DNA from: an uncultured Clostridia bacterium
Lineage (GTDB): Bacteria; Bacillota; Clostridia; Christensenellales; Borkfalkiaceae
Direction of reading: 5' to 3'
Assembly (NCBI GenBank): GCA_934249325.1
Contig: CAKQKW010000006.1
Coordinates: 3,491-67,490 of the forward strand
Length of the DNA: 64,000 nucleotides
The position numbers were made by a program, and so were the translations under genes. Below the pieces are notes generated by a model. It did no database searches. It was not told the DNA's origin and saw nothing but the letters and a program-made list of their open reading frames with translations. Shown in pieces: positions 1-13,001 of the stretch. Numbering within the stretch: the stretch's first letter is position 1; each line of letters opens with the position of its first letter.

Positions 1-447
1 TTGAAAGAATACGGATTACATACGATTATCCGTTTGCCGCAGGTATTCAAACCGTATGCGAGCGTCAATACCAATCTTTTGTTCTTCAAAAAAGGCGTTG
101 TCAGTCGTGGCGTATGGTTCTATCGTCTTGACTATCCGGAAGGCGTTAAGAGCTTCTCCAAGACTAAGCCGATGCAGGACAAGCATTTTGATCCCGTTCG
201 TGAATGGTGGGAGAACAAAGAAGCCATTGTAGTCGATGGTTTTGACAAGGCACGCTTCTATACACCCGAAGAATTGGAAGCGTTGAACTACGATTTTGAT
301 AAATGCTGTCCGTTTCCTCATGTGGAAGAAGAAATTCTTGAGCCGAAGGACTTGATTGCCAAGTATGAAGCGGAACGCACCGAACTGAATGCCTCTATTG
401 ATCGTATCTTGGCAAGTATCACCGCAAAAATGGAGGAAAATAAATGA
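1..447 (+). CDS. hsdM: Type I restriction-modification DNA methyltransferase subunit HsdM, C-terminal fragment (5' part lies outside the window)
   Basis: The ORF is open to the window edge. The C-terminal sequence (RLPQVFKPYASVNTNLLFFKKG...VWFY) resembles the region after the catalytic motif of N6-adenine HsdM methylases. A 4-nt ATGA overlap links it to the downstream hsdS. Confidence 0.85.
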   Translation: MKEYGLHTIIRLPQVFKPYASVNTNLLFFKKGVVSRGVWFYRLDYPEGVKSFSKTKPMQDKHFDPVREWWENKEAIVVDGFDKARFYTPEELEALNYDFDKCCPFPHVEEEILEPKDLIAKYEAERTELNASIDRILASITAKMEENK

Positions 448-1862
448 CGGCACAAGAATTAAAAAACTCCATTTTGCAGTTGGCGGTTCAAGGGAAACTT
501 GTACCACAATATAAAGAGGATGAACCGGCATCGGAATTGTTGAAGCGAATTGAACAAGAAAAATCCACACTCATTAAGGCAGGCATAATCAAAAAATATA
601 AGGAACTTTCAACTCTCTCTGCAGATGATTGCCCATTTGATATCCCGGAATCGTGGATTTGGATGAAGCTCGGAGATATGTGTCAACTTCTTGACGGTGT
701 AAAAAGAAGGGGAGAAAAACATCCATATCTTGAAGCGAAATATCTTCGTGGTAAAGTTGATGCAACTATACTGAATGAAGGAAAATTTGTAGAAAAAGGC
801 ACTCGATTAATTTTAGTTGATGGTGAAAATTCAGGCGAGGTATTTAACTCAACCCAAGACGGATATATGGGTAGCACTTTTAAGGTGCTGTTTTTTCCCC
901 AAGTTCTGTCTGAGGAATATGTATTGTATTTTCTACTTTTCAAAAGAACGGCTTTCCGCAACAATAAGACTGGAGCCGCCATTCCTCATTTGAACAAAGA
1001 GCTGTTTTTTAATATGCCGTTCCCTATTCCCCCTCTTGCCGAACAAAAGCGCATTGTGGCAAAAATCGAAGAATTGATGCCTTTGATTGAGGAATACGGC
1101 AAGGCAGAAGAACAGTTAACCAAATTGAATGCCGAATTCCCGGACAAGCTCCGCAAATCCATTTTGCAACAAGCCGTTCAAGGTAAGCTTACCGAACGTG
1201 ATCCTGCCGACGAACCCGCCTCTGAACTTCTCAAACGCATTAAGAAGGAAAAAGAAGCTCTCATGAAATCCGGCAAAATCAAAAAAGAAAAGCCTCTGCC
1301 GGAAATTACAGAGGACGAAAAGCCTTTCGATATTCCGGATACTTGGGAGTGGGTAAGATTATCTGATATTTGCAATATATCAGACGGCACACATCAAACT
1401 CCGACTTATGTTGAACATGGTATCCCATTTATTTCGGCACAAAATGTAAAACCATATCGTTTTCTTCCCGAAAATCATAGGGATGTATCGTATGAGGATT
1501 ACTTAGAATACAACAAAAACATATCCCCTGAAAAAGGAGATATTCTGATGGCTCGTGTTGGAGCCGGGATAGGAGAAGCAGCAATAATTGATCAGGATTT
1601 TGAGTTTTCTATCTATGTAAGTTTGACATTAATTAAATGCTATTCAAAAGAATTTGATATGATGTATCTTCTTCATGTGTTAAATTCTCCTATCGGTAGG
1701 AAACTTGCAGAAAAGAAAACATTGGGTAAAGGTGCATCACAAGGTAATTTGAATTTGATATTTATTAGAGAATTTGTATTGCCTATCCCACCACTCGCTG
1801 AACAAAAACGAATTGTCAAACGCGTTGAAGAACTTCTCGCCTTGTGCGATGAATTGAAATGA
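444..1862 (+). CDS. hsdS: Type I restriction-modification specificity subunit HsdS (two target-recognition domains)
   Basis: The conserved helices 'PPLAEQKRIV..EEL' occur twice, and the spacer motif 'SILQ.AVQGKL....DEPASELLKRI..EK' also occurs twice. These flank two variable halves, which is the canonical HsdS layout. Confidence 0.9.
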   Translation: MTAQELKNSILQLAVQGKLVPQYKEDEPASELLKRIEQEKSTLIKAGIIKKYKELSTLSADDCPFDIPESWIWMKLGDMCQLLDGVKRRGEKHPYLEAKYLRGKVDATILNEGKFVEKGTRLILVDGENSGEVFNSTQDGYMGSTFKVLFFPQVLSEEYVLYFLLFKRTAFRNNKTGAAIPHLNKELFFNMPFPIPPLAEQKRIVAKIEELMPLIEEYGKAEEQLTKLNAEFPDKLRKSILQQAVQGKLTERDPADEPASELLKRIKKEKEALMKSGKIKKEKPLPEITEDEKPFDIPDTWEWVRLSDICNISDGTHQTPTYVEHGIPFISAQNVKPYRFLPENHRDVSYEDYLEYNKNISPEKGDILMARVGAGIGEAAIIDQDFEFSIYVSLTLIKCYSKEFDMMYLLHVLNSPIGRKLAEKKTLGKGASQGNLNLIFIREFVLPIPPLAEQKRIVKRVEELLALCDELK

Positions 1863-1872
1863 GGTGAATATA

Positions 1873-3198
1873 ATGATTGGTCTTGATAAAACCGCACAGG
1901 ATGCACTGAGAAATATTTATGCACAATTGGAGAACAATAGCGAGATATCCGTCTCGTCTCCGGGCTATAAAAAAACGACCATTGATTATTTAGTTAGTCA
2001 AGGGTTGCTTGAAAAAATTGATGCAAGTACACTAAGTGGGTGGGCATACATCATTAGACCAACTCATGGTGGAGAAGTAGTGTTTGCTGAGTTATCAGCG
2101 TTACCCTTATCAAAAGTTGACACTTTTATCAAACAAGGCGAAACCATTATGAAAGAGGAATATCATCATGTAACAGACCCCGGATTAGTAATACCTGATT
2201 ATATCAGCGGACCAAAATCAGATCAATGGTTTAACGAAATTAGCATATTTAACAGCCGAATATTAATTAATCATCCGTTACATGACCAGATTGCAGAGGT
2301 ATGTAAAAATCACAAACGGTCATTATCTGCTCACAAAGATATGATGGGATACTTGAAAGCACTCGCTTCAGATAGTGACTTTTGGAGAGAACCTGAACCA
2401 AAGGAGAACCCAATGAAAGTAAGCAGTAAAAGAACAATTGATCAGATGCTGGCAGATGGCATTGAACGTTGTGAGGAATATCTCAATCAGCCAAGCGACG
2501 AGACATACGGAAAAAAGCTATACATTGAAATTACAAGTAGATATGATAGTATTATTAGTGGATTTGGAAATGGTTTATATAATTATTATGCTGACCAACA
2601 CTTTTACGATCCCGAGATATGTGGCGATTCCCTATTACATAATCTGCGTGTATTACATGGAAAGATGGTTGCTTATCAAGCTAAAAAAAATTCGCCTGTT
2701 GCAACAGTAAACAATTCACTCAAACATTCAGAAAGTGATGTCAAAGACAATAAAAAGGTCTTTGTTGTACATGGACATGATAATGAAGCAAAGCAAGAAT
2801 TAGCTCGAGTCCTCGAAAAATCTGATTTTGAGGCAATTATTTTACATGAACAGCCCAATGCCGGAAAAACGATCATTGAAAAAATTGAGCGCTTTTCAGA
2901 TGTGGGTTATGCAATTGTCCTCTATACTGAATGTGATAAAGGGCGTGACAAGAATGTACCGATAGAACAAGAAAAAAGCAGAGCGAGACAGAATGTTGTT
3001 TTTGAGCATGGTTACTTAATTGCAAAGCTCGGCAGAGATCATGTATGTGCATTAGTCAAAGGGGATGTTGAAACTCCTGGAGATATTAGCGGAGTTGTCT
3101 ATGTCCCTATGGATGAGAATGGCGCATGGAAAATACAGTTGGCAAAGGATATGCAAGATGTGGGATTGCCTGTTGATATGAATAAGTTTTGCAGGTAA
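1873..3198 (+). CDS. Protein with an orphan ~290-aa N-terminal region and a C-terminal TIR-like domain (Cap12/PycTIR-type, 'predicted nucleotide-binding protein containing TIR-like domain')
   Basis: The C-terminal ~150 aa read 'KKVFVVHGHDNEAKQELARVLEKSDFEAIILHEQPNAGKTIIEKIE...RARQNVVFEHGYLIAKLGRDHVCALVKGDVETPGDISGVVYVPMD'. This matches the VFIVHGHD / EQ.N.G.TIIEK / R.RQNV.FE.GY signature as I remember it. ATG 1873 lies 6 nt after a GAGGTG Shine-Dalgarno. The ORF track starts at GTG 1864. Confidence 0.7.
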   Translation: MIGLDKTAQDALRNIYAQLENNSEISVSSPGYKKTTIDYLVSQGLLEKIDASTLSGWAYIIRPTHGGEVVFAELSALPLSKVDTFIKQGETIMKEEYHHVTDPGLVIPDYISGPKSDQWFNEISIFNSRILINHPLHDQIAEVCKNHKRSLSAHKDMMGYLKALASDSDFWREPEPKENPMKVSSKRTIDQMLADGIERCEEYLNQPSDETYGKKLYIEITSRYDSIISGFGNGLYNYYADQHFYDPEICGDSLLHNLRVLHGKMVAYQAKKNSPVATVNNSLKHSESDVKDNKKVFVVHGHDNEAKQELARVLEKSDFEAIILHEQPNAGKTIIEKIERFSDVGYAIVLYTECDKGRDKNVPIEQEKSRARQNVVFEHGYLIAKLGRDHVCALVKGDVETPGDISGVVYVPMDENGAWKIQLAKDMQDVGLPVDMNKFCR

Positions 3199-3218
3199 GG
3201 GCTTAATAGGAGGTTCGT

Positions 3219-4340
3219 ATGGATTTTTGTTTTGATGCAGTTATTATCGATACATCAGCATTGGAAAATTTTCAATTTGATTTCTGTGGATGGACGACAA
3301 AAACATTACCGTCGTTTTTTGATTTCCTTAAAGAACAAAATATCCATCTTTTGAACCATCCAGTATTAGACGGAGAAATAAAGAAACATATTGTTCATTC
3401 TCAATTGCTCGAAAAAATCAATGGTTTGCAACAAAATATTCAACGCAATAAAGAGTTTTATAAGCTTATCGGCGTTTCGCCTGAAGATGCCATAAAACGA
3501 TTATCTGAACTTGACATAGAAAAAATGTTGTTATCTGAGTACAACAATATTTTTTGCGATGCTACTATGCTCTCTTTTTCATCACCAGAAATAATTTTTG
3601 AAAAATACTTTAGTTCGTGTCCTCCTTTTTCAGAAAGCGGTAATAAAAAGAATGAATTTCCAGACGCCTTTATTATTGAAAGTGTAAAAGATTATTTGAG
3701 AAAGAATAGATTTCACAATGTTCTTGTCGTGAGCAAAGATTTTGATTGGAAAAAGGCTTTTGAAAAAGTGGAGAGAACATCTTTTTGCGACTCAATCGAT
3801 GATGCTTTGAAAATGGTTCAAAGCACTGAAAAAATTGATTATATAGTATCAGACTGTAAAATAGAAATATTAGAAGCTATACAATTTCAGGCAGAATGCG
3901 AATGCTATAGCCTATCTGATTTCGAGATGCCTGCAAATGCAGATGTCGAAATTATGTCGGTCAAAGTTGGTGATATAAATGATATTATTCCTTTGAGGAT
4001 TACTTCTTCTACGATACTATTTAAATGTTCCGCACACCTTTTTGTAGCTGGCTCAACACGTATTATCAATGAAGATCGTTCTTTCTGGGATCATGAAGAA
4101 AGAGAATACCTAATTATTTCGTATTCAGATATTTCATTTAAAAATGGGCAGGCAAATGTTGAATGTGAGATTACAATAGACTACTCTCCTGAAATCGACG
4201 ATTATACCGCTCAGGTGTCTGATGCAAGAATAATTGAAAAATATGCTATTGATATAGATCTGAATGGCGCTGATATCGATGAAGAAGAATGCTCAGATGA
4301 CCAATTGGCATATGAAGCTCTATTGGACGACCACAGATAA
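3219..4340 (+). CDS. PIN-like domain protein (DUF4935-type) with a ~180-aa C-terminal domain of unknown function
   Basis: The N-terminus 'AVIIDTSALENF' supplies the first acidic residue after a beta strand. 'FPDAFIIESV' and 'VLVVSKDFDW' sit where the later PIN acidic residues are expected. An AGGAGG Shine-Dalgarno lies 6 nt upstream of the ATG. Confidence 0.5.
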   Translation: MDFCFDAVIIDTSALENFQFDFCGWTTKTLPSFFDFLKEQNIHLLNHPVLDGEIKKHIVHSQLLEKINGLQQNIQRNKEFYKLIGVSPEDAIKRLSELDIEKMLLSEYNNIFCDATMLSFSSPEIIFEKYFSSCPPFSESGNKKNEFPDAFIIESVKDYLRKNRFHNVLVVSKDFDWKKAFEKVERTSFCDSIDDALKMVQSTEKIDYIVSDCKIEILEAIQFQAECECYSLSDFEMPANADVEIMSVKVGDINDIIPLRITSSTILFKCSAHLFVAGSTRIINEDRSFWDHEEREYLIISYSDISFKNGQANVECEITIDYSPEIDDYTAQVSDARIIEKYAIDIDLNGADIDEEECSDDQLAYEALLDDHR

Positions 4341-4342
4341 TC

Positions 4343-5149
4343 ATGGAAAATTATTTTATTTTTACCGACGAAGCCGGTGCTTATCAAAAGCGTCCAAGTG
4401 ATGCTCATATCAGAAGTCATCCGTTTTACATAAGAGCAAATGTTTGTATGTCAATTGATGATTATCGACAGTATCAAATTGAAATGCAACGTGTAAACGG
4501 CGAATATGAAATCCCCTTCGACGAGGAAATTAAATGGTCGGATTTATGGAGCAAAGAGAGAAAGAAACCGCGGAATGATCGGATTTCACAAATGTCTTCT
4601 GACCGTTTGAAGGGTTACTATTGTAAAGTTTTTGAGCTTGCCACAGCAAAAAAATCAACAATGTTTTTATTCACTGTAACAGACATAGTCGGACGAACAT
4701 GTGGATGGAGAATCGAACCATTATATAAAGCGCATTTACAAGACGCATTTGAGAGAATTCAGATGGATTTGAATAACACAGATGATTTTGCAACGTTTGT
4801 AATGGATGAATTAAACATAGAAACAATTAAAGAAATAAAGTCCGCTTGCCATGAGTTTACTATTCACGGAGATTTCGTTAAGTATAAAAACCTGTATCAG
4901 GGAGTATTAACTGAAAACAGCTTATATAGCCCTGGAATTCAACTTGCTGATTATGCAGCAGGTGTGATGAATGGATATCTGCGTGGAAAAATTGTTTCAC
5001 CAGGCAACTATCAATTTGCAACGAATCTATTTTCTGATTATATTATTTCCCGAATCAGATCACATTCCAACGGCACAATCGTTGGTTACGGAGTTATTGA
5101 TGTACCGAAAAAAACACCTTTTAGAAAAAAACTTGAAACTGTGTTCTAA
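4343..5149 (+). CDS. DUF3800-type protein (function unknown)
   Basis: The N-terminal 'YFIFTDEAGAY' and C-terminal 'IQLADYAAGV' match the two DUF3800 signature motifs (..D-E-S/A-G.. and Q-x-A-D) as I recall them. The start lies 2 nt after the upstream stop and has no obvious SD, which suggests translational coupling. Confidence 0.55.
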   Translation: MENYFIFTDEAGAYQKRPSDAHIRSHPFYIRANVCMSIDDYRQYQIEMQRVNGEYEIPFDEEIKWSDLWSKERKKPRNDRISQMSSDRLKGYYCKVFELATAKKSTMFLFTVTDIVGRTCGWRIEPLYKAHLQDAFERIQMDLNNTDDFATFVMDELNIETIKEIKSACHEFTIHGDFVKYKNLYQGVLTENSLYSPGIQLADYAAGVMNGYLRGKIVSPGNYQFATNLFSDYIISRIRSHSNGTIVGYGVIDVPKKTPFRKKLETVF

Positions 5150-5169
5150 TATAAAAGGAGAATTGGGTT

Positions 5170-6657
5170 ATGAAAAATAAATTGGTGTCTTTAATAGATA
5201 TGGTTAAACTTTCCCATAATCCTGAGCTTTCCAAAGCGTACATACGCTATTTGTGTGGCCTTAACGACGAGAAACAATATCGTCATCAAGAAATCAAAGA
5301 TATAAAGTCGTTGCTGTCATATATTCCTCTTCCCGAGACAAAACTTTCAGGATTTATTTATGGATATGATGTGCCTCAGTTAAATCGCGAATTCGATTTA
5401 CTTAAGATTACCGAAACTTGTTGTCTAAATATCGAGTTAAAAAGCGTTGATATCGCAGAAGAAAAAATCAGGAAGCAACTTCTTCAAAATCGTCATTATC
5501 TGAAACTGCTGGATAAGGAATTGTTTTTGTTTACATATATATCATCGTCAAACGTTGTATATTCATTAAACGATTGTGGAGAACTCATACAGGTTGATCT
5601 TTCATCACTTTTAGATACTTGGCGTACAATTAAGGATGAAGCAGTTCTTGTTGATTTGGATCAAGTGTTTGCTCCCAAAAACACGCTTGTTTCACCGCTT
5701 AATGCAACAGAAAAATTTTTGAATGGCGATTATATTCTCACAGAAAATCAAGAAAATATCAAAAAAAAGATTCTTTCATATATTACTTCAAATTCAGCTG
5801 ACAGATTCGTAGGGTTAACAGGTGGCCCCGGGACGGGTAAAACACTCGTTATTTATGATCTTGCGAAAGAACTGTCTGTTTCTTGCAGCATCCTAATTGT
5901 ACATAGTGGAATTTTGTGCGCTGGACACGAAGAATTAAATAATAAACTTCAAAATGTAAAAATCATTTCCGCGAAAGAACTACGGTACAGAGAAATCAAT
6001 AACGTTGATATTGTTATAGTAGATGAGGCTCATAGACTCTATACTGAATCTCTCGAAAAAATTGAAAGATGGGTTAAGCGAACAAAAACAATTTGTATTT
6101 TTTCGTATGATGCAGGGCAAATGCTTTCGCGAAGAGAAAAATTCAGAGATACTACAAAAAAGATTAATGTAATTTGTACAAATCATATTTTTAAACTTAC
6201 AAACAAGATTCGTACAAACAAAGAATTGGCATTGTTTATCACCTGCCTTTTTGATCTATCGAAGTATAGGGATGATTACTCTTTCCCAAATGCCAAAATT
6301 ATTTTTGAACCTGATAGAGTAAAAGCTAAAGTATCCATAGAAGCCTTAAAGCAAGCTGGCTACACTTTTATTTCCTATACGCCATCTGTTTTTCGCTCGT
6401 ATCTTGACGATCAGGCTGATGAATTTAATACGCACAATGTTATCGGACAAGAGTTTGATGGAGTGTGTATGATGCTGGATAATCATTTTTCCTATAATTC
6501 CTCAGGAAAATTAGAAGCCACCGAGCACCCAAATCCCGATTATCTTTTCACGCAGTTGCTTTACCAAGGGTTAACGAGAGTTAGAAGTAAAATTGCAATT
6601 GTGGTAACATCAGAAACAATATTACAAAATCTTTTACCTCTAATGAAAAATAATTAA
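5170..6657 (+). CDS. Predicted nuclease-ATPase: N-terminal PD-(D/E)xK (NERD-like) motif plus a P-loop DUF2075/SF1-helicase-like NTPase
   Basis: 'EFDLLKI...CLNIELKS' gives a D..ExK motif. The Walker A is 'GLTGGPGTGKT' and the Walker B/DEAH-like box is 'IVIVDEAHRL'. The C-terminal 'VIGQEFDGVCMM' and 'LYQGLTRVRSKIAIV' resemble SF1 motifs V/VI. An AAGGAG SD lies upstream. Confidence 0.6.
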   Translation: MKNKLVSLIDMVKLSHNPELSKAYIRYLCGLNDEKQYRHQEIKDIKSLLSYIPLPETKLSGFIYGYDVPQLNREFDLLKITETCCLNIELKSVDIAEEKIRKQLLQNRHYLKLLDKELFLFTYISSSNVVYSLNDCGELIQVDLSSLLDTWRTIKDEAVLVDLDQVFAPKNTLVSPLNATEKFLNGDYILTENQENIKKKILSYITSNSADRFVGLTGGPGTGKTLVIYDLAKELSVSCSILIVHSGILCAGHEELNNKLQNVKIISAKELRYREINNVDIVIVDEAHRLYTESLEKIERWVKRTKTICIFSYDAGQMLSRREKFRDTTKKINVICTNHIFKLTNKIRTNKELALFITCLFDLSKYRDDYSFPNAKIIFEPDRVKAKVSIEALKQAGYTFISYTPSVFRSYLDDQADEFNTHNVIGQEFDGVCMMLDNHFSYNSSGKLEATEHPNPDYLFTQLLYQGLTRVRSKIAIVVTSETILQNLLPLMKNN

Positions 6658-6675
6658 TATCAATAAAGATTCATT

Positions 6676-6711
6676 AAAAAGGAAGTCTAATTCGAATTAG
6701 ACTTCCTTTTT
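6676..6711 (+). terminator. Rho-independent terminator closing the hsdM-hsdS-four-gene operon
   Basis: A perfect palindrome 'aaaaaggaagtctaattc/gaattagacttccttttt' ends in a T run, 19 nt after the stop codon at 6657. Confidence 0.8.
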
Positions 6712-6776
6712 GTATGCGGCTGTTAAAAAATTATAGGTAACTTTTTTCTTAAAAACCTTGTAAAACTCATCGTAAA

Positions 6777-6811
6777 ATGTCCCTTTATTATAAAGGGGCA
6801 TTTTTCTTTTT
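6777..6811 (+). terminator. Second hairpin plus T-tract (terminator-like) just outside the left end of the IS
   Basis: 'atgtccctttat-tta-ataaaggggcat' forms an 11-bp stem and is followed by 'tttttcttttt'. Confidence 0.5.
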
Positions 6812-6814
6812 GCG

Positions 6815-7896
6815 GTGAATTATACTATTAAGTGCAACACCTAAGCGAAAAAAAAGAAGTTCATATAAATCTATGGTATAATGGTTTTAAGCACAAAACA
6901 AAAACACCAGGGAGAAATATATGAACTATAAACATTTTACCATAGAAGAACGTTGTTGTCTACGAGAATATTACATAAAAGGAAAAAGTTATAGAGAAAT
7001 AGCAAGGTTACTCGGTAGAAACGTAAGTTCGGTTTCAAGAGAGTTGCGAAGAAATTGCACGTTTTACAGAGATATTCCGAGATATTACCCATATACTGCT
7101 CAACGCAAAAGTAATTTAAGAAACAGTTATCGCCATCGAGGAATGTTTTGGAGTAAAGAAGTAATCGACTACATCGACGAAAAATTATCGCTGACTTGGT
7201 CGCCCGAACAAATAGCAAATACTCCATGCGAATTAAAAATACCTTCATTTAAGACGATTTATAGGTGGATAGACGAAGGATATTTGCGTTCAACGTTAAA
7301 AAATTTACGAAGAAAAGGCAAAACACGAAAAAGATTAGGAAACGGCGGAAGATTTACCACAGGTAAATCTATACGAAAGAGAGATAAAAGCGTATATACA
7401 AGAAAAGAATTCGGACATTGGGAAGCAGATACAGTTGTAAGCGGCAAAGGAAAAGCAAAAGCGTGTTTTGCAACGCTGGCGGAAAGAAAAACGAGATTTT
7501 ACATAGCAGTGAAAATACCTGATAGAAACGGCGAAACAATGGCAAACGCAATCATAAAAGCGTTGTCGATACTTCCGAAAGGAGCGGTGAAAACGATCAC
7601 TTGCGACAGAGGAAGCGAATTCGCGGGTTGGAAAAAAATAGAAGAAGAACTGCATTGTAGCATGTATTTTGCCGACCCGTATTGCGCGTGGCAAAAAGGT
7701 ACGAATGAAAACCTGAACGGATTGCTTCGCGAATTCTATCCCAAAGGTCACAATCTCGAAAGAGTATCCGAAAAAACACTAAAAAAGAATCTGGCGTTAA
7801 TTAACGCCAGACCCAAGAAAGTTTTACACTACCAAAAACCGGTAGATTTATTTAACTTTTTTCTCACTAAGTGTTGCACTTAGTTTGACAATTCAC
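6815..7896 (+). mobile_element. IS30-family insertion sequence, apparently intact (~1.08 kb)
   Basis: A single transposase ORF is flanked by 26-bp imperfect terminal inverted repeats. The left IR (6815-6840) is gtgaattatactattaagtgcaacac. The reverse complement of the right IR (7871-7896) is gtgaattgtcaaactaagtgcaacac. By hand alignment 20 of 26 positions are identical. Confidence 0.85.
6921..7883 (+). CDS. IS30-family transposase (HTH plus DDE)
   Basis: The N-terminal HTH 'SYREIARLLGRNVSSVSRELRRN' is present. DDE landmarks are 'HWEADTV', 'TCDRGSEF' and 'NENLNGLLREFYPKG'. The stop codon lies inside the right IR. Confidence 0.9.
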   Translation: MNYKHFTIEERCCLREYYIKGKSYREIARLLGRNVSSVSRELRRNCTFYRDIPRYYPYTAQRKSNLRNSYRHRGMFWSKEVIDYIDEKLSLTWSPEQIANTPCELKIPSFKTIYRWIDEGYLRSTLKNLRRKGKTRKRLGNGGRFTTGKSIRKRDKSVYTRKEFGHWEADTVVSGKGKAKACFATLAERKTRFYIAVKIPDRNGETMANAIIKALSILPKGAVKTITCDRGSEFAGWKKIEEELHCSMYFADPYCAWQKGTNENLNGLLREFYPKGHNLERVSEKTLKKNLALINARPKKVLHYQKPVDLFNFFLTKCCT

Positions 7897-7917
7897 TCTG
7901 TTTATCTGAATTTTCGC

Positions 7918-9903
7918 TTACTTATTCTTTAAATTGTTTATTGTCTTTTTGACCGTTTCGACTACGTTTTCAACGGTGAAACCGAATTTTTCGAGAAGGG
8001 CGGAGTAGGGGGCGGACGCTCCGAACGTGTCCATTCCGATAACGTCTCCGTCTAATCCGACGTATTTGTACCAAGGCGATTTTGCGCCTGCTTCGATTGC
8101 GATTCTCGCTCTTATCGACGGGTTTAAAACGCTGTTTTTATACGTTTGCTTCTGTTTATCGAAAAGTTCCATACAGGGCATCGATACGACCGTTACGTCT
8201 ATTCCTTCGAGCCTTAACGCGTCTCTCGCCTTCATCGCGAGTTCGACCTCCGACCCCGAAGCCATCAGTATTGCGTCCGAACGGTTTTTCGCCGAACGGG
8301 AAAGAACGTAAGCGCCCTTTAACGCATTGCCGTTCGATTCTTCGTATTGCGGAAGATTTTGTCTCGATAAAACTATACAGGTCGGTCCCTCTTCTTCGAG
8401 GGCGGTTATCCACGCGCAGACCGTCTCTTTTCCGTCCGCGGGACGGAATACTTTCATATTCGGTATCGCGCGAAGTCCCGCAAGTTGTTCGACGGGTTGA
8501 TGCGTTGGTCCGTCCTCGCCGACGCCTATAGAGTCGTGAGTGAGAATATACGTTACGTTTCTGTTCATTAAGGCGGACAAACGCATTGCGTTTTTCATAT
8601 AGTCCGAGAAAATGAAGAAGGTCGCGCAGTAAGGTCTCAAACCGCCGTGAAGCGAAATGCCGTTGCAAATCGCCGCCATAGCGTGTTCTCTTATTCCGAA
8701 GTGGAAATTCGTTCCGCTTCTGTTTTCGGCAGAGTAGTAGGTTCTGTTTTTCATTACCGACTTGTTCGACGGACCCAAATCCGCGCTGCCGCCGACGAGG
8801 TTAGGTATAAGATCGGCGAGGATATTGAGAACTTTCGAACTTGTGTTTCGCGTCGCGTCGGGCTTCGGAAAATCGTAAAGTTGCTTTTCTTTAAAGAAAT
8901 TCGGGAGTTTTCCCTTCATATAGTCGGAATATTTCTGAGCGAGTTCGGGGTATGCCGCCTGATACGCTTTAAACGTTCTCTTCCATATTCTTTGAATTCG
9001 TATTCCCTTCGTGGTATATCTGTGGTGATATTTCTTTACTTCTTCGGGAACGGTGAACGGCGGATAGTCGTAACCGAGGTTTTCTCTGAGTCCCTTGATG
9101 CCGTCCGCTCCGAGCGGCGCTCCGTGAGTGTCTGCGGAACCCGCTTTCGGCGAGCCGTAACCTATTACCGTTCTGACGATTATGAGCGACGGTTTTTCTT
9201 TTTCCGCTTTCGCTTTCGCTATTGCTTTCGCAATCGCCTTCACGTCGTTGCCGTCTTTGACGTTTATGACTTGCCAGCCCTGAGCCGCGTGGCGTTTTCC
9301 CACGTCCTCTGTGAACGCGCCGTCGGTATCGCCTTCTATCGTAATATTATTTTTGTCGTATAAAACTATCAACTTGCCGAGTTTTAAAGTGCCTGCGAGA
9401 GAAGCCGCCTCGTACTCGATGCCTTCCATCATACAACCGTCTCCGCAGAGCGCGTAAGTGTAGTGGTCAACCACGTCGTAATCGGGTTTGTTGAAAGTTG
9501 CCGCTAAAATCGTTTCGGCTATCGCCATACCGACCGCATTCGCTATGCCTTGACCCAAAGGTCCGGTAGTCGTTTCTACGCCGGGGGTAACTCCGTATTC
9601 GGGATGACCGGGTGTTTTCGAGCCTAATTGCCGAAAATTCTTTATGTCCTCCATAGATACGTCGTATCCGAACAAATGAAGAAGAGAGTAGTAGAGCATA
9701 GAGCCGTGACCTGCCGACAAAACAAATCTGTCTCTGTCTGCGAAGTCGGGATCTTTCGGATTGAATTTAAGGTGTTTTGCAAAAAGCGCGTAAGCGATCG
9801 GCGCACTTCCGAGCGGAAGCCCGGGGTGACCCGATTTCGCTTTTTCGATTGCCTCTGCGGAAAGAACCCTCAGCGTGTTTACGGAAAGTTGACTTATATC
9901 CAT
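7918..9903 (-). CDS. tkt: Transketolase
   Basis: Matches include '[11 protein letters not shown]', 'GDGCMMEG' and the C-terminal domain. The start is chosen at the internal Met ([12 protein letters not shown]) because an AGGAG SD precedes it. The ORF track extends 22 codons further, to 9969. Confidence 0.9.
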
Positions 9904-10086
9904 TAGTAAATCTCCTGTGTGCGTCGTAAGAAACGTACTTAAACCCATTATACATTTTTTTTTCGCCATTTACAAGCAAAAAGGGGTTGTTTTCAGCCCG
10001 ACTTTAAATTTTTCATTTTATACTCCCGACAGTCGGGGAAAATACGCCGCATAATTTTTAATTTCATCAAAAAACCATTATATCGC

Positions 10087-10115
10087 TTTACTTTTTTCAA
10101 TTTATTTTATATAAT
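10087..10115 (+). promoter_or_regulatory. Putative sigma-70-type promoter for proS
   Basis: TTTACT (10087-10092), a 17-nt spacer, then TATAAT (10110-10115). This placement argues against the track start at 10114. Confidence 0.4.
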
Positions 10116-10149
10116 GATTATTATCTATAATTGTAATCGGAGATTAAAA

Positions 10150-11880
10150 ATGCTTGTAAGAAACTTACTCGGCGCAAGATATAAAGAAACGCCCAAGGAC
10201 TGTACGATCGCAAGTCACGCTCTTATGATGAAGGGCGGATACATCAAATATATGAGCAACGGAAGTTACTCGTTGTTCAACCCCGCGAAAAGGATAACTT
10301 CAAAAATCGAAAAAATCATTCGCGAAGAAATGGATAAAATCGGCGGACAAGAAGTGCTTTTCCCCGTCGTAATGCCCGCTTCTCTTTGGGAAGAATCGGG
10401 AAGATATACGAGTATCGGCAGCGAAATGGCTCGTTTTACCGACAGAAACAATATGAAAATGGTACTCGGAATGACCCACGAAGAAGCAGCCGTTCATCTT
10501 GCGAGAGACGTTGCCGCTTCCTATACCGATTACCCGTTTATGATTTATCAGATTCAGACCAAATTCAGAGACGAACCGAGAGCGAGAGGCGGTCTTATAA
10601 GGGTAAGGGAATTTACGATGAAAGACGCGTATTCTTTCCATACCTCGCAAGCCGATCTCGAGGAGTATTACGAAAAGTGTTACGAGGCTTACGTCCGCAT
10701 ATTTAAAAGAACGGGAGCGAAAAACGTTATTGCGGTAAAAAGCGACAGCGGAATGATGGGCGGCAACGTTTCCCACGAGTTTATGCTTCTGACGGATATA
10801 GGCGAGGACACCTTGGCAATCTGCTCGAACGAGGGTTGCGATTATAAGGCGAACGTAGAAGTTGCCGATTGCATAACTCACGAAATAGAAAGCGAAAAGA
10901 GAGACCTTGAAAAAGTCGAAACGCCTAACGTTAAAACGATAGAAGGTCTTAAACATAAACTTGGCGTAGAAACCACGCTTATGTGCAAGGCGGTCGTGTA
11001 TCAGGAAAATCTTACGGACGAATACGTCGTAGTATTCATAAGGGGAGACTTAGAGGTAAACGAAACCAAACTGAGAAACTATCTCAAAGCCGAAGTACAC
11101 CCCGCTACGGGCGTGAATGAGGAAAGCGGAATAGTCGCAGGCTTTATAGGCCCCGTCGGCTTTAACGCTAAGGCAAAAGTGGTGTTTGACCGTTCGCTTA
11201 AAGGTATAGAGAGTTTCGTATGCGGAGCGAACGAGAAAGATTATCATTACGTCGGAATGAATATCGAAAGAGACGTAGGAAAGGTCGAATACGTCGACGT
11301 CGCGAAGGCGTATAACGGCGGCATTTGTCCGATATGCGGAAAGCCGACGATAACCTTGAAAAGAGGAATAGAAGTCGGAAACATATTCCAACTCGGACAG
11401 AAGTATACTAAGTCTATGAATATGACCTACGTGGATAAAGACGGCGAGAGGAAGAACCCGATTATGGGTTGTTACGGTATAGGAGTCGGCAGACTCTGCG
11501 CCTCTATCTGCGAGGAACAGCACGACGCTTACGGCCCCGTTTGGCCTATGCCTATCGCTCCGTGGCAGGTGGAGATCTGCTGTTTGCAGTCTGAGGACGA
11601 AAAGGTCAAAGCGGTTTCCGACGAACTTTACAAAACCCTTTCGGACGCAGGCATAGAGGTTCTTTACGACGACAGAGACGTAAGGGCGGGGTCTATGTTT
11701 GCCGACGCCGATCTTTTTGGAATTCCGATAAGGGCGGTCGTAAGTCAGAAAACGTGCGACAGAGGGGTCGTTGAAATTTCTTACAGAGACAAGTCGTATA
11801 AAGGCGACGTTACCATGGGCAAAGCCGCCGAGGAAATCGAAAGAAGAGTTAAAGAATTACTCGATAAATACAAGGCTTAA
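10150..11880 (+). CDS. proS: Proline--tRNA ligase (prolyl-tRNA synthetase)
   Basis: The sequence is class II aaRS ProRS-like throughout (HALMMKGGYI, FRDEPRARGGLIRVREFTMKDAYSF, GCYGIGVGR). ATG 10150 is preceded by a GGAG. Confidence 0.9.
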   Translation: MLVRNLLGARYKETPKDCTIASHALMMKGGYIKYMSNGSYSLFNPAKRITSKIEKIIREEMDKIGGQEVLFPVVMPASLWEESGRYTSIGSEMARFTDRNNMKMVLGMTHEEAAVHLARDVAASYTDYPFMIYQIQTKFRDEPRARGGLIRVREFTMKDAYSFHTSQADLEEYYEKCYEAYVRIFKRTGAKNVIAVKSDSGMMGGNVSHEFMLLTDIGEDTLAICSNEGCDYKANVEVADCITHEIESEKRDLEKVETPNVKTIEGLKHKLGVETTLMCKAVVYQENLTDEYVVVFIRGDLEVNETKLRNYLKAEVHPATGVNEESGIVAGFIGPVGFNAKAKVVFDRSLKGIESFVCGANEKDYHYVGMNIERDVGKVEYVDVAKAYNGGICPICGKPTITLKRGIEVGNIFQLGQKYTKSMNMTYVDKDGERKNPIMGCYGIGVGRLCASICEEQHDAYGPVWPMPIAPWQVEICCLQSEDEKVKAVSDELYKTLSDAGIEVLYDDRDVRAGSMFADADLFGIPIRAVVSQKTCDRGVVEISYRDKSYKGDVTMGKAAEEIERRVKELLDKYKA

Positions 11881-11885
11881 TTATT

Positions 11886-13001
11886 ATGGCGGGCAAAGCG
11901 AAAAAAAGAGACAATTTTTCATATAACCCCAACAGGTTCAACGCTCTCGACGGCGGAATATGTTATCTCGTTATTCTCACCGTATTTTTCTGCTTGCCGT
12001 ACGTTGTAAAATATACCTGTCGGGATCTTCTTCTTTCCGCGTACAATTACGATACTTACTTGTATCTTCTATTGAATTTGCTTATTTCGCAATCGGCGAT
12101 ATTTTTGGTTGCGTATATATTTTCTGCGGTGAGAAAAGTCAATCCTTTCAGGGGCGGCGGCTACGAGGCGAAGAAAGACGGCGTTCAGATTTTAATGTCG
12201 GTATTGCTGATTATGGGCGTAATGCTCACGTTCTATTACGTTCACATGCAGTTCTCGGACGACGCCGAATTTATTTTCGGTTCGTCTTCGGGTATCGAAC
12301 AACGTTTTTCACCTCTTACAGGTTTATATGCTTTCGTGTACGTCGTTGCAATTTCCGTTCTTCCCGCTATTTGCGAAGAAATGCTTTTCAGAGGAGTGGT
12401 GATGCGAGGTCTCGAACAGTTCGGGGGAGTTACCGCCGTAATCGTATCGTCCCTTGCGTTTTCGCTTATGCACGGCAATTTTTCGCAACTGCTTCTTCAA
12501 TTTATAGGCGGCGTGGCGATTGCTTCGGCGGTTTCCGTAACCCGTAACTATTTAGTCGGTTCGGTAATGCACTTTACCAACAATTTGTTTGCGGTGATTT
12601 ACGGAATTCTGATATACGACGACGGTTCGGCGGGAATATTATTCGCGACCGTGAATAAAGCCGTGGACGGTATGCTTATTCTTATAGGCGTTTCGTTCCT
12701 TGTCGTCAGTATCGTTTATTTTATGAAACTTGCGTTCGATAATCAGAAAAAGAGTATCTCGGGCGAAGAAAAAGTCAATAAATACGAAAAACGCGAGTTT
12801 TACCGCGTAAAAGAAAACGGCAGAGAGTACTTGCTCGACTGCCATGTCAAAGCCGAATTGAAGCCGAGGGGAGAGAACGACGGAAAATTGTTCTATATCG
12901 GCGGAAAATACAGAAAATTAAACGCGAAATCGCCATTTATAATATCGGTAGTTGTTTTTTCGGCGGCGTTTTTGTTCGCGATAATTCAGTTATTTTTGTA
13001 G
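11886..13001 (+). CDS. CPBP-family intramembrane glutamic endopeptidase (CAAX protease/Abi family), polytopic membrane protein
   Basis: The 'CEEMLFRG' and 'FSLMHGN' motifs sit in hydrophobic context. Confidence 0.75.
   Translation: MAGKAKKRDNFSYNPNRFNALDGGICYLVILTVFFCLPYVVKYTCRDLLLSAYNYDTYLYLLLNLLISQSAIFLVAYIFSAVRKVNPFRGGGYEAKKDGVQILMSVLLIMGVMLTFYYVHMQFSDDAEFIFGSSSGIEQRFSPLTGLYAFVYVVAISVLPAICEEMLFRGVVMRGLEQFGGVTAVIVSSLAFSLMHGNFSQLLLQFIGGVAIASAVSVTRNYLVGSVMHFTNNLFAVIYGILIYDDGSAGILFATVNKAVDGMLILIGVSFLVVSIVYFMKLAFDNQKKSISGEEKVNKYEKREFYRVKENGREYLLDCHVKAELKPRGENDGKLFYIGGKYRKLNAKSPFIISVVVFSAAFLFAIIQLFL

Follow-up and report, generated by a model that had tools for sequence, protein, structure and literature searches.

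Restriction-modification locus and TIR-like effector domain

The 64,000-nucleotide (nt) stretch analyzed here, referred to as the window, belongs to contig CAKQKW010000006.1 of an uncultured Clostridia bacterium and opens with the end of a Type I restriction-modification (R-M) operon. Directly behind the specificity gene hsdS lies a gene encoding a stand-alone protein, in which a C-terminal TIR-like domain of the family PF10137 follows an N-terminal region of about 290 amino acids (aa) (Table 1). An initial annotation, made from the sequence letters alone, had placed the open reading frame (ORF) at 1864-3198 on the forward strand, and this ORF proved to be real and intact, with a length of 444 aa when counted from GTG 1864. 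The true start is probably ATG 1873, which is located seven bases past the Shine-Dalgarno sequence GAGGTG, and an identical 441-aa protein (P0001) was called from the same ATG on four independent metagenome contigs. GTG 1864 was rejected as the start because it sits within the Shine-Dalgarno sequence; residue numbers given throughout nevertheless follow the 444-aa frame. Since the Shine-Dalgarno sequence overlaps the stop codon of hsdS, the gene is probably co-transcribed with hsdR, hsdM, and hsdS and translated as the tail of their transcript. In sister loci, the gene and hsdS overlap by 4 nt.

Table 1. Features of the window in and around the TIR-like gene, with residue numbers in the 444-aa frame.
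Feature	Positions	Strand	Basis
hsdM, 3' part (Type I R-M methyltransferase), cut by the window edge	1-447	+	PF02384 N6_Mtase, E=7.1e-08; ~98% identical to the full hsdM of L007
hsdS, specificity subunit	444-1862	+	PF01420 Methylase_S, E=9.6e-34, two stretches; first target recognition domain (TRD1) at ~451-1050
Junction TGAGGTGAATATAATG: hsdS stop TGA 1860-1862, Shine-Dalgarno GAGGTG 1861-1866, probable start ATG 1873-1875	1860-1875	+	direct reading of the sequence
Stand-alone TIR-like (PF10137) protein gene	1873-3198	+	441 aa from the probable start ATG 1873
N1 (aa 4-78), alpha/beta module with winged-helix-like topology	1873-2097	+	AlphaFold2 (AF2) predicted local distance difference test (pLDDT) ~90; order H-E-H-E-E-H
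N2a (aa 82-175), helical module with one beta-hairpin	2107-2388	+	alignment of homologues; AF2 pLDDT mostly >90
Disordered variable loop between N2a and N2b (aa 176-189)	2389-2430	+	pLDDT <50 over aa 177-188; poorly alignable
N2b (aa 190-276), helical module with one beta-hairpin	2431-2691	+	invariant columns; AF2 pLDDT mostly >90
Disordered linker (aa 277-296)	2692-2751	+	pLDDT <50 over aa 277-291; mean pairwise identity 0.16
TIR-like effector domain, PF10137 (aa 297-444)	2752-3195	+	Pfam, PADLOC, Foldseek
Active-site motif R375-Q-N377-V-V-F-E381	2986-3006	+	phmmer alignment to 7un8_A; equivalents SfSTING R78, N80, catalytic E84
D407 in PGDISG motif	3082-3084	+	equivalent to SfSTING D110
PIN_12-domain gene, next in the operon	3219-4340	+	PF16289, E=1e-19
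DUF3800 gene	4343-5149	+	PF12686, E=1.1e-08
AbiO/Nhi-like helicase-type defence gene, last of the co-directional block	5170-6657	+	PADLOC AbiO E=3.1e-139, Nhi E=9.3e-134
Terminator-like hairpin at the end of the block	6774-6804	+	14-bp stem and T-run
IS30-type transposase at the edge of the low-GC island	6921-7883	+	HTH_38 and rve

Three motifs had been quoted for the C-terminal part of the protein, and all of them were found, namely VFVVHGHD (aa 299-306), HEQPNAGKTIIEKIE (aa 328-342), and RARQNVVFEHGYLIAKLGR (aa 373-391). The TIR-like identity that was proposed from these motifs is borne out by a hidden Markov model (HMM) search, in which aa 298-417 aligned to positions 1-118 of the 119-position Pfam profile PF10137 (CAP12-PCTIR_TIR) with E=1.5e-38; the score of 131.9 bits exceeds the cut-off of 24.7, and such a profile match is far beyond chance. 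Five HMMs of the PADLOC candidate family PDC-S35 also matched the protein (E=6.5e-82 to 7.5e-42); the top one, PDLC05007, reached 273.3 bits, and another, PDLC05004, spans aa 198-442 and covers the N2b module together with the TIR-like domain. Matches to the models of known signalling systems were weak. The PADLOC models for the TIR effector of the cyclic-oligonucleotide-based antiphage signalling system (CBASS) and for PycTIR of the pyrimidine cyclase system for antiphage resistance (Pycsar) gave weak matches, the latter with 23.1 bits (E=9.8e-06) in the TIR part only, and the NCBIfam Cap12 equivalogs NF050171 and NF050172 scored 29.5 and 22.9 bits against a cut-off of 450, over about 60-70 residues of the TIR part.

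A full-length AF2 model was built from 51 homologues (mean pLDDT 82.3), and its TIR-like part was matched by Foldseek to the TIR domains of the TIR-STING structures 9LMQ, 9LMR, and 7UN8 (prob 1.00, E=5e-5 to 1.5e-3, and up to 3e-4 for 9LMQ and 7UN8) at an identity of 20-23%, with the SPARTA TIR and DNPH1 lower in the list. In the phmmer alignment to 7UN8, whose deposited chain numbering is offset by +8 relative to the SfSTING residue numbers, RQNVVFE (R375/N377/E381) of the window protein pairs with RDNVVFE (R78/N80/E84) of SfSTING, and D407 in PGD pairs with D110 in PTD. Previous study of SfSTING showed that R78 and N80 contact nicotinamide adenine dinucleotide (NAD+), that E84 on helix alphaC is catalytic, and that D110 completes the active site of the neighbouring TIR (PMC9402430). 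The glutamate which the initial annotation named as catalytic is thus E381 in FEHG (NVVFEHG), aligned with E84 in DNVVFEFG, and the rest of the catalytic set (R375, N377, and D407) is aligned as well. R375, Q376, N377, P405, and D407 are invariant across the 51-sequence alignment, while E381 is conserved in at least 90% of the sequences, the exceptions being two homologues that carry another TIR. Judged from these profile, fold, and residue comparisons, the effector has a TIR-like fold of the Cap12/Pycsar type, and none of its catalytic residues is lost. Since the NAD+-contacting Arg and Asn, the catalytic Glu, and the trans-acting Asp are kept, the protein is most likely an NAD+ glycohydrolase, whose activity is predicted to require the packing of at least two TIR-like domains. 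A phage family without assigned function, phrog_16442 (287 positions), matches 2698-3159 (aa 278-432 of the 441-aa protein) with E=2.9e-55, so phages or prophages, too, encode proteins closely related to the effector domain.

No cyclase model of PADLOC matched any of the 42 other ORFs in the 64-kb window, and neither a CD-NTase nor a nucleotide cyclase was present among the Pfam-labelled or scanned neighbours of related loci, each of which was partly covered. In the ~99% identical loci that extend further 5', hsdR and other non-cyclase genes were found upstream, and no cyclase. The earlier statement that no cyclase is encoded nearby therefore holds at the gene itself, in the window, and upstream in these loci. 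A known cyclic-nucleotide sensor in the protein, together with a cyclase just upstream, was looked for and not found.

N-terminal modules, their turnover, and their partner domains

According to the AF2 model and the alignment of homologues, the N-terminal region consists of three modules, N1, N2a, and N2b, followed by a disordered linker (N2 denotes N2a and N2b together). N2a contains the invariant residues G92, W122, R132, and P138, and N2b contains the motifs DIxRCE, ITSRYDSII, FGNGLYQY, and HFYDPE. An internal duplication relating N2a to N2b was considered and rejected (hhalign prob 0.4%). N1 gave weak Foldseek matches to winged helix-turn-helix proteins, such as LmrR (E=0.089) and MukE. 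It is missing from homologues of about 360 aa and is swapped for a partial N2b copy in forms of about 448 aa (hhalign prob 95%), which means that N1 is optional or replaceable within the family.

No match to aa 1-296 was found in Pfam, NCBIfam, or PHROGs, and PADLOC covered the N2b part only; Pfam applied singly to 30 N2 homologue segments gave scattered lone matches without consensus. The full AF2 model yielded a significant Foldseek match for the TIR-like part only, and a model of N2 alone (pLDDT 88.6) had best matches of E=0.75 in the PDB and E=0.5 in BFVD (viral predicted structures), leaving N2 without a significant structural neighbour in these two databases. The N2 profile retrieved nothing from the PDB sequences, even at E<=10, and no STING, SAVED, CARF, or cyclic nucleoside monophosphate (cNMP)-binding model matched the N-terminal region in Pfam, NCBIfam, or the N2 structure and profile searches. 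The N-terminus had previously been described as unplaceable and mostly helical. Its unplaceable character agrees with the absence of database matches, whereas the helical description is too simple, as N1 is modelled as an alpha/beta module and the helical N2a and N2b each carry a beta-hairpin.

The turnover of these modules was revealed by comparison with the related locus L007. The DNA of the window and L007 is about 99% identical in hsdM, the conserved parts of hsdS, N1, N2a, most of the TIR-like domain, and the PIN_12 gene, while N2b and the linker (2401-2850) show 63-72% DNA identity; at the protein level, N2b is 63% identical between flanks of 96-99%. TRD1 of hsdS (451-1050) has 41-76% DNA identity to L007 between flanks of about 99%, and this is a classic TRD swap, located in the same operon as the N2b cassette swap. 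The DUF3800 gene (4351-5100) is a third diverged segment, with 63-86% DNA identity. At another locus, L035, N1 differs and N2b is the same as in L007, so that the modules of the N-terminal region recombine independently between loci. Across the family, the effector is the most conserved part, with a mean pairwise identity of 0.75, and the corresponding values for N1, N2a, and N2b are 0.43, 0.52, and 0.59. Judging from these comparisons, N2b appears to behave like a specificity cassette, as the TRDs of HsdS do, and it is because of this turnover that we read the N-terminal region as the sensing part. A tblastn search of plasmid and phage records with the N-terminal region returned no match.

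The effector can also be exchanged while the N-terminal modules are kept. In P0052 and P0055, an N1 that is 100% identical and an N2a that is 87-95% identical to those of the window protein are followed, after N2b, by a canonical TIR domain (PF13676/PF01582), and P0052 occupies the same locus position, overlapping the end of hsdS. To see which domains accompany N2 in general, its profile was searched against 1.84 billion representative proteins. Just 263 matches were obtained at E<=0.001, and therefore the family is small. The best 150 of these 263 were classified by local HMMs and then by Pfam, and every identifiable partner of N2a/N2b among them has a TIR fold, either PF10137, TIR_2/TIR/SEFIR, or DUF4062, the rest being fragments. 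N2a and N2b are often found apart, and N2a alone precedes TIR_2, PF10137, and DUF4062 domains. No fusion to a nuclease, SIR2, transmembrane, or other non-TIR effector was seen in these 150; five unassigned tails that were considered as non-TIR effectors turned out to be TIR_2/SEFIR, DUF4062, or unassignable. In one protein, P0167, N1-N2a is fused to DUF4062, which ties the N-terminal modules to a third TIR-fold family. The N-terminal modules are thus portable, although only among TIR-fold enzymes in the 150 best matches, and this restriction suggests that N2a/N2b may have a mechanistic part in activating TIR domains, such as determining the geometry in which they assemble, and may not be a generic ligand sensor. 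The initial annotation had proposed that the orphan N-terminal domain is a direct sensor, and the part of this proposal that concerns specificity and sensing gains indirect support from the fast evolution, the recombining modules, and the exchangeable effector.

Alternatively, the protein might be the effector of a signal made elsewhere, in which case N2 would be a new nucleotide-second-messenger receptor and the synthase or cyclase would be located at a distant locus. The known members of the domain family, Cap12 and PycTIR, are gated by second messengers, and N2b has a dense invariant cluster of polar and aromatic residues (R226-Y-D, G-N-G-L-Y-Q-Y, and H-F-Y-D-P), as expected of a ligand pocket. 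However, CBASS and Pycsar effectors are, as a rule, encoded beside their cyclase, and no cyclase occurs in the window or among the genes identified in related loci. N2 is also unlike the STING, SAVED, CARF, or cNMP-binding folds, and the fast turnover of the N2b cassette fits a variable phage target better than an invariant host messenger. A distant signal is therefore very improbable in our view.

Related loci and neighbouring defence genes

Related loci were collected from species genomes (20 loci) and metagenomes (42 loci), and their neighbouring genes were labelled by tblastn with reference proteins and by Pfam. The 20 species-genome loci all belong to Bacillota, mostly gut or rumen isolates or metagenome-assembled genomes (MAGs), save two fragmentary ones (Bacteroidia and a Campylobacter MAG), and the hosts include Ruminococcus bromii ATCC 27255, Christensenellaceae, Lachnospiraceae, and Oscillospiraceae. 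When lineages are defined as clusters at 80% identity, about 24 have informative upstream sequence. In about 12 of them, the gene directly follows the last gene of a Type I R-M operon (hsdS, hsdR, or hsdM), and in two it directly follows brxL of a type 1 bacteriophage exclusion (BREX) system; the resulting ~14 of ~24 is a raw count, not set against other defence genes. The gap between the upstream gene and the TIR-like gene in the R-M and BREX lineages ranges from -19 to +98 nt, always on the same strand. At least six layouts were recognized (hsdRMS, hsdMS-x-hsdR, hsdSM, hsdMS, a second hsdRMS family, and BREX), and hence the association with R-M or BREX arose repeatedly. The remaining ~10 of ~24 lineages are not linked to R-M or BREX, and the genes found upstream instead include those for a YobI-like NTPase, AAA-ATPase_like+PDDEXK_9, an AAA_15 ATPase, GNAT, a 5'-nucleotidase, IS200, a DprA-like protein, and a tRNA methyltransferase. 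No constant neighbour gene was found across the related loci. Therefore, the R-M/BREX position is real and has arisen repeatedly, but it is not obligate and involves no conserved partner protein.

The recurrent position raises the question of whether the same enzyme guards adenine-methylation immunity, being triggered when the Type I R-M or BREX system upstream fails or is inhibited. Under this explanation, triggers could include DNA mimics that counter restriction, such as Ocr or ArdA, or a metabolite derived from methylation, and the mode of action would be comparable with PrrC in EcoprrI and PARIS in BREX. The direct downstream position behind R-M operons or brxL, its repeated origin in at least six layouts, and the tight junctions, with the Shine-Dalgarno sequence overlapping the hsdS stop codon or the genes overlapping by 4 nt, all agree with such a role. 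Furthermore, Ocr has been reported to inhibit BREX, and embedded PARIS or Gabija was proposed as a backup (discussion of the Payne et al. 2024 preprint). However, members of a single cluster at >=80% identity (L018) are found behind hsdR, hsdS, hsdM, or an unrelated AAA-ATPase+PDDEXK_9 gene, and other lineages stand behind the non-R-M genes listed above. The HsdR families also differ by lineage (772 aa versus 1045-1110 aa), hence there is no conserved partner surface. The tail position may simply be a hotspot for cargo, because unrelated systems occupy the same slot, including Hachiman (after the gene in the BREX lineage), PIN_12, DUF3800, and AbiO/Nhi. Moreover, the association with Type I R-M is not obligate, as the ~10 unlinked lineages include members of the same 80% cluster as linked ones. 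We regard the guard role as doubtful on this evidence, and a fixed physical R-M partner is unlikely, because one lineage follows hsdR, hsdS, hsdM, or an unrelated gene and the R-M families differ. For the same reasons, the status of the R-M complex, which the initial annotation had offered as a possible cue, is not supported. An extended form of the guard role, in which N2a/N2b would be an undescribed sensor-assembly unit for TIR folds and the NADase would fire when Type I R-M or BREX is neutralised, whether by DNA mimics directed against restriction or through a cue arising from methylation or restriction, with the recombining N2b setting the specificity as the TRDs of HsdS do for the R-M enzyme, is quite doubtful.

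In the BREX lineage (L005, L006, and L063; gene at 10001-11335 in L005), the gene lies between brxL, at a gap of 7 nt, and the Hachiman gene hamA, with an overlap of 1 nt, so that three systems are packed without intergenic space. L035, a locus that is otherwise similar to the window, contains a 309-aa ORF without Pfam match (2086-3015) between hsdS and the TIR-like gene.

Downstream of the TIR-like gene, the window carries a PIN_12 gene, which is 99-100% conserved, is present only in the lineage of the window, and is probably separate cargo. Neither the PIN_12 nor the DUF3800 protein had a match in PADLOC, NCBIfam, or PHROGs, and from their sequences both look like uncharacterised defence-island cargo. 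One may ask, however, whether they form a Thoeris-like pair with the TIR-like protein, which would make an NAD+-derived signal activating DUF3800 or PIN_12 as the effector. DUF3800 starts 4 nt inside the gene or 1-35 nt after it in four lineages (the L011 cluster, L014, L016, and L037), and follows the intervening PIN_12 gene in the lineage of the window. This adjacency is seen with both PF10137 and canonical-TIR versions of the protein. One lineage has a DprA-like (PF02481) ORF either ahead of the gene or fused with it, and a 2025 survey described numerous new types of Thoeris, whose effectors were unexpected. The window protein also shares with Thoeris ThsB a TIR fold, a variable non-catalytic part, and a location in defence islands.

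However, DUF3800 is near the gene in five of about 20 lineages with downstream sequence and is not downstream in most lineages, including all those at hsdR or BREX tails. The loci linked to DUF3800 all share one R-M family, so that shared island ancestry explains the adjacency. In addition, the TIR-like genes of L007 and L008 are identical, whereas their DUF3800 proteins are 74% identical, and therefore the two do not co-vary. Tight spacing is no evidence of linkage in these islands, because the gene overlaps hamA of Hachiman, a separate known system, by 1 nt. To date, the PF10137 domains that have been characterised, PycTIR among them, act as NAD+-depleting effectors. The PF10137 domain of the Cap12 TIR-STING is another such effector (PMC9402430). 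PF10137 is not a ThsB-type TIR, no conserved signal-binding effector partner is apparent for the window gene, and neither DUF3800 nor PIN appears in the text and supplements of the 2025 survey, where DUF3800 is not among the described Thoeris effectors. DUF3800 was thus considered as a functional partner and found unsupported, as it does not co-vary with the TIR-like gene or N2b and is missing in most lineages, and a Thoeris-like pair is improbable. As to the DprA-like sequences, one lineage has a 205-aa ORF (404-1021 in L048) that extends into the beginning of the TIR-like gene, and a DprA-like fragment is fused ahead of the N-terminal modules in P0128. They may be artefacts of gene calling or frameshift, or a hint of a nucleotide-binding partner.

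The co-directional block ends with an AbiO/Nhi-like gene, whose slot is filled otherwise in L007-L010, by a 299-aa ORF or by NikA-like, ParB, resolvase, or relaxase genes. Over positions 1-10000, the guanine-cytosine (GC) content steps from 0.32-0.37 in the island to 0.45-0.49 in the housekeeping genes tkt and proS, and Rfam found nothing over positions 1-12000, DUF3800-associated motifs included. In near-identical loci, hsdR is located upstream of hsdM and is preceded by AbiEii/DUF6088 or Fic and TnpV, and the island of sister loci adjoins relaxase, ParB, resolvase, or integrase genes. Such surroundings, a low-GC island flanked by IS30 whose sister loci lie among mobility genes, would also suit a non-immune role, either as an addiction or toxin module that stabilises a mobile island or, given the winged-helix-like N1, as a DNA-binding regulator with a degenerate enzyme domain. 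However, invariant catalytic residues, and an effector conserved above all other parts of the protein, argue against a degenerate enzyme, and many homologues do without N1. No small ORF resembling an antitoxin lies next to the gene with any consistency, and the neighbours are overwhelmingly defence genes. We therefore consider a non-immune role highly improbable.

Proposed mode of action and relation to known systems

Taken together, the explanation that we prefer, with a probability of about 55%, is that the protein is a single-protein abortive-infection NADase, whose N-terminal region senses an infection cue directly and whose N2b module is the specificity element. In this proposal, the N-terminal region, composed of the optional N1, N2a, and the hypervariable N2b, would keep the enzyme off and recognise the cue, which by analogy with SpbK and Swarozyc would most likely be a multimeric phage protein or nucleoprotein assembly. 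Binding of the cue would cluster the protein, so that D407 of one TIR-like domain could complete the active site of its neighbour, and N2a/N2b may supply the assembly geometry for TIR activation beyond ligand binding. The resulting loss of NAD+ would leave the infected cell unable to sustain the phage. As the last gene expressed from the R-M operon, it would act as a second line behind restriction.

Several points weigh against this explanation. The sequence gives no pointer to the chemical nature of the cue, be it protein, nucleic acid, or small molecule, and the support comes from homology and comparison, PDC-S35 itself being a candidate (Payne et al. 2024 preprint). Because the identity to the solved Cap12 TIR domains is just 20-23%, NADase activity and its product are predictions, and because the inter-domain arrangement of the AF2 model is unreliable (predicted template modelling score 0.38), autoinhibition and oligomerisation are likewise predictions. 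DUF3800 directly follows the gene in several lineages, and TIR domains can also make signalling molecules. Finally, the survey of N2 partners covered the best 150 of 263 representatives.

PDC-S35 is one of the PADLOC candidate families, which comprise 145 candidates described as untested and identified by "guilt by embedding", their genes having been found inside BREX, DISARM, or Type I R-M systems (Payne et al. 2024 preprint); PDC-S35 itself is a single-gene candidate. The window protein agrees with PDC-S35 in its HMM matches and in its location, as PDC-S35 likewise occupies Type I R-M and BREX operons, either internally or in terminal position. It differs in length, since the PDC-S35 profiles have 231-278 positions and none covers the additional N1 and N2a (~190 aa). 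By its profile matches, the window protein belongs to PDC-S35, a family already listed as a defence candidate, and represents a form with an extended N-terminus. No literature naming PDC-S35 was found, nor any linking TIR-like proteins to hsdS, and that on PF10137 consisted of domain-survey mentions only; a large 2025 survey of TIR signalling systems set stand-alone TIRs aside. The new elements are the N2a/N2b modules, seen only with TIR folds among the best 150 of 263 matches, the exchange of effector and N2b, and the recurrent R-M/BREX tail position.

Among characterised relatives, the Cap12 TIR-STING proteins (SfSTING; 7UN8 and 9LMQ) share with the window protein the TIR-like fold, the Arg, Asn, catalytic Glu, and trans-acting Asp, and presumably the need for TIR-TIR packing. 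The initial annotation assumed an N-terminal sensor for both Cap12 and PycTIR, which is correct for PycTIR; in Cap12, according to profile and chain coordinates, the TIR domain is N-terminal and the STING sensor C-terminal, the reverse of the order in the window protein. Furthermore, the window protein has neither a STING nor a SAVED domain, has no CD-NTase in its operon, and falls below the 450-bit equivalog cut-off. PycTIR has the same domain order, with the sensor N-terminal and PF10137 C-terminal, whereas the window protein lacks a cNMP-binding domain and the PycC cyclase and matches PycTIR weakly, in the effector only.

The design of the window protein is closer to that of single-gene TIR systems. 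SpbK is a TIR protein that senses the SPbeta protein YonE, with which it is reported to interact (PMC12847820). DUF4062 is a TIR-like NADase in the single-gene defence systems Swarozyc and Evangelion (two 2026 preprints). In Swarozyc, the DUF4062 NADase is activated by assembly on the phage portal and has an auxiliary domain with an HTH/winged-helix core, and Evangelion consists of a DUF4062 core with a diversified auxiliary region (2026 preprints). These systems follow the same logic, in which a single gene combines a conserved NADase core of TIR fold with an auxiliary region that has diversified, and NAD+ depletion brings about abortive infection, and the window protein is likewise a single gene with a TIR-fold core, a diversified auxiliary region, and no dedicated partner. 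The winged-helix-like N1 and the fusion of N1-N2a to DUF4062 in P0167 are a further likeness to Swarozyc. Unlike these systems, the window protein has a TIR-fold core of the PF10137 family, and its N2a and N2b have no detectable relative in the PDB; the auxiliary regions were set against N2 by description only. The "different activation logic" that the initial annotation claimed is therefore overstated, being new only within PF10137, since SpbK, Swarozyc, and Evangelion are known. If the preferred explanation is true, the protein would represent a third mode of switching on a Cap12/Pycsar-type TIR-like NADase, by a self-contained sensor-effector without a cyclase, and PF10137 would join the design of a TIR core with a diversified auxiliary region. 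N2a/N2b would then offer a handle on how TIR domains reach the active assembly, and the exchange of N2b and effector between ~99% identical loci would be a natural specificity swap and a template for engineering. Nearly all of the matches recovered come from Bacillota of the gut and rumen, a group in which phage defence has received little study.

Abortive or secondary defence genes that are co-transcribed with Type I R-M or BREX have been described before, including PrrC in the EcoprrI operon and PARIS and BrxU in BREX. PrrC and PARIS rely on ABC ATPases with a nuclease, an effector unrelated to the TIR-like domain of the window gene. PrrC is located between hsdS and hsdR, whereas the window gene is placed at the 3' end of the operon and its family is not confined to R-M contexts. 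Given the repeated placement at R-M and BREX tails, the idea that the gene backs up methylation-based immunity can be tested directly. As a separate observation, one Type I R-M operon, in L040, possesses two TIR-type genes (2909-3328 and 7683-9038), of which the first is a PF10137-like ORF flanked by hsdM and hsdR, and the second, located after hsdR, carries N2 and has a C-terminus other than PF10137.

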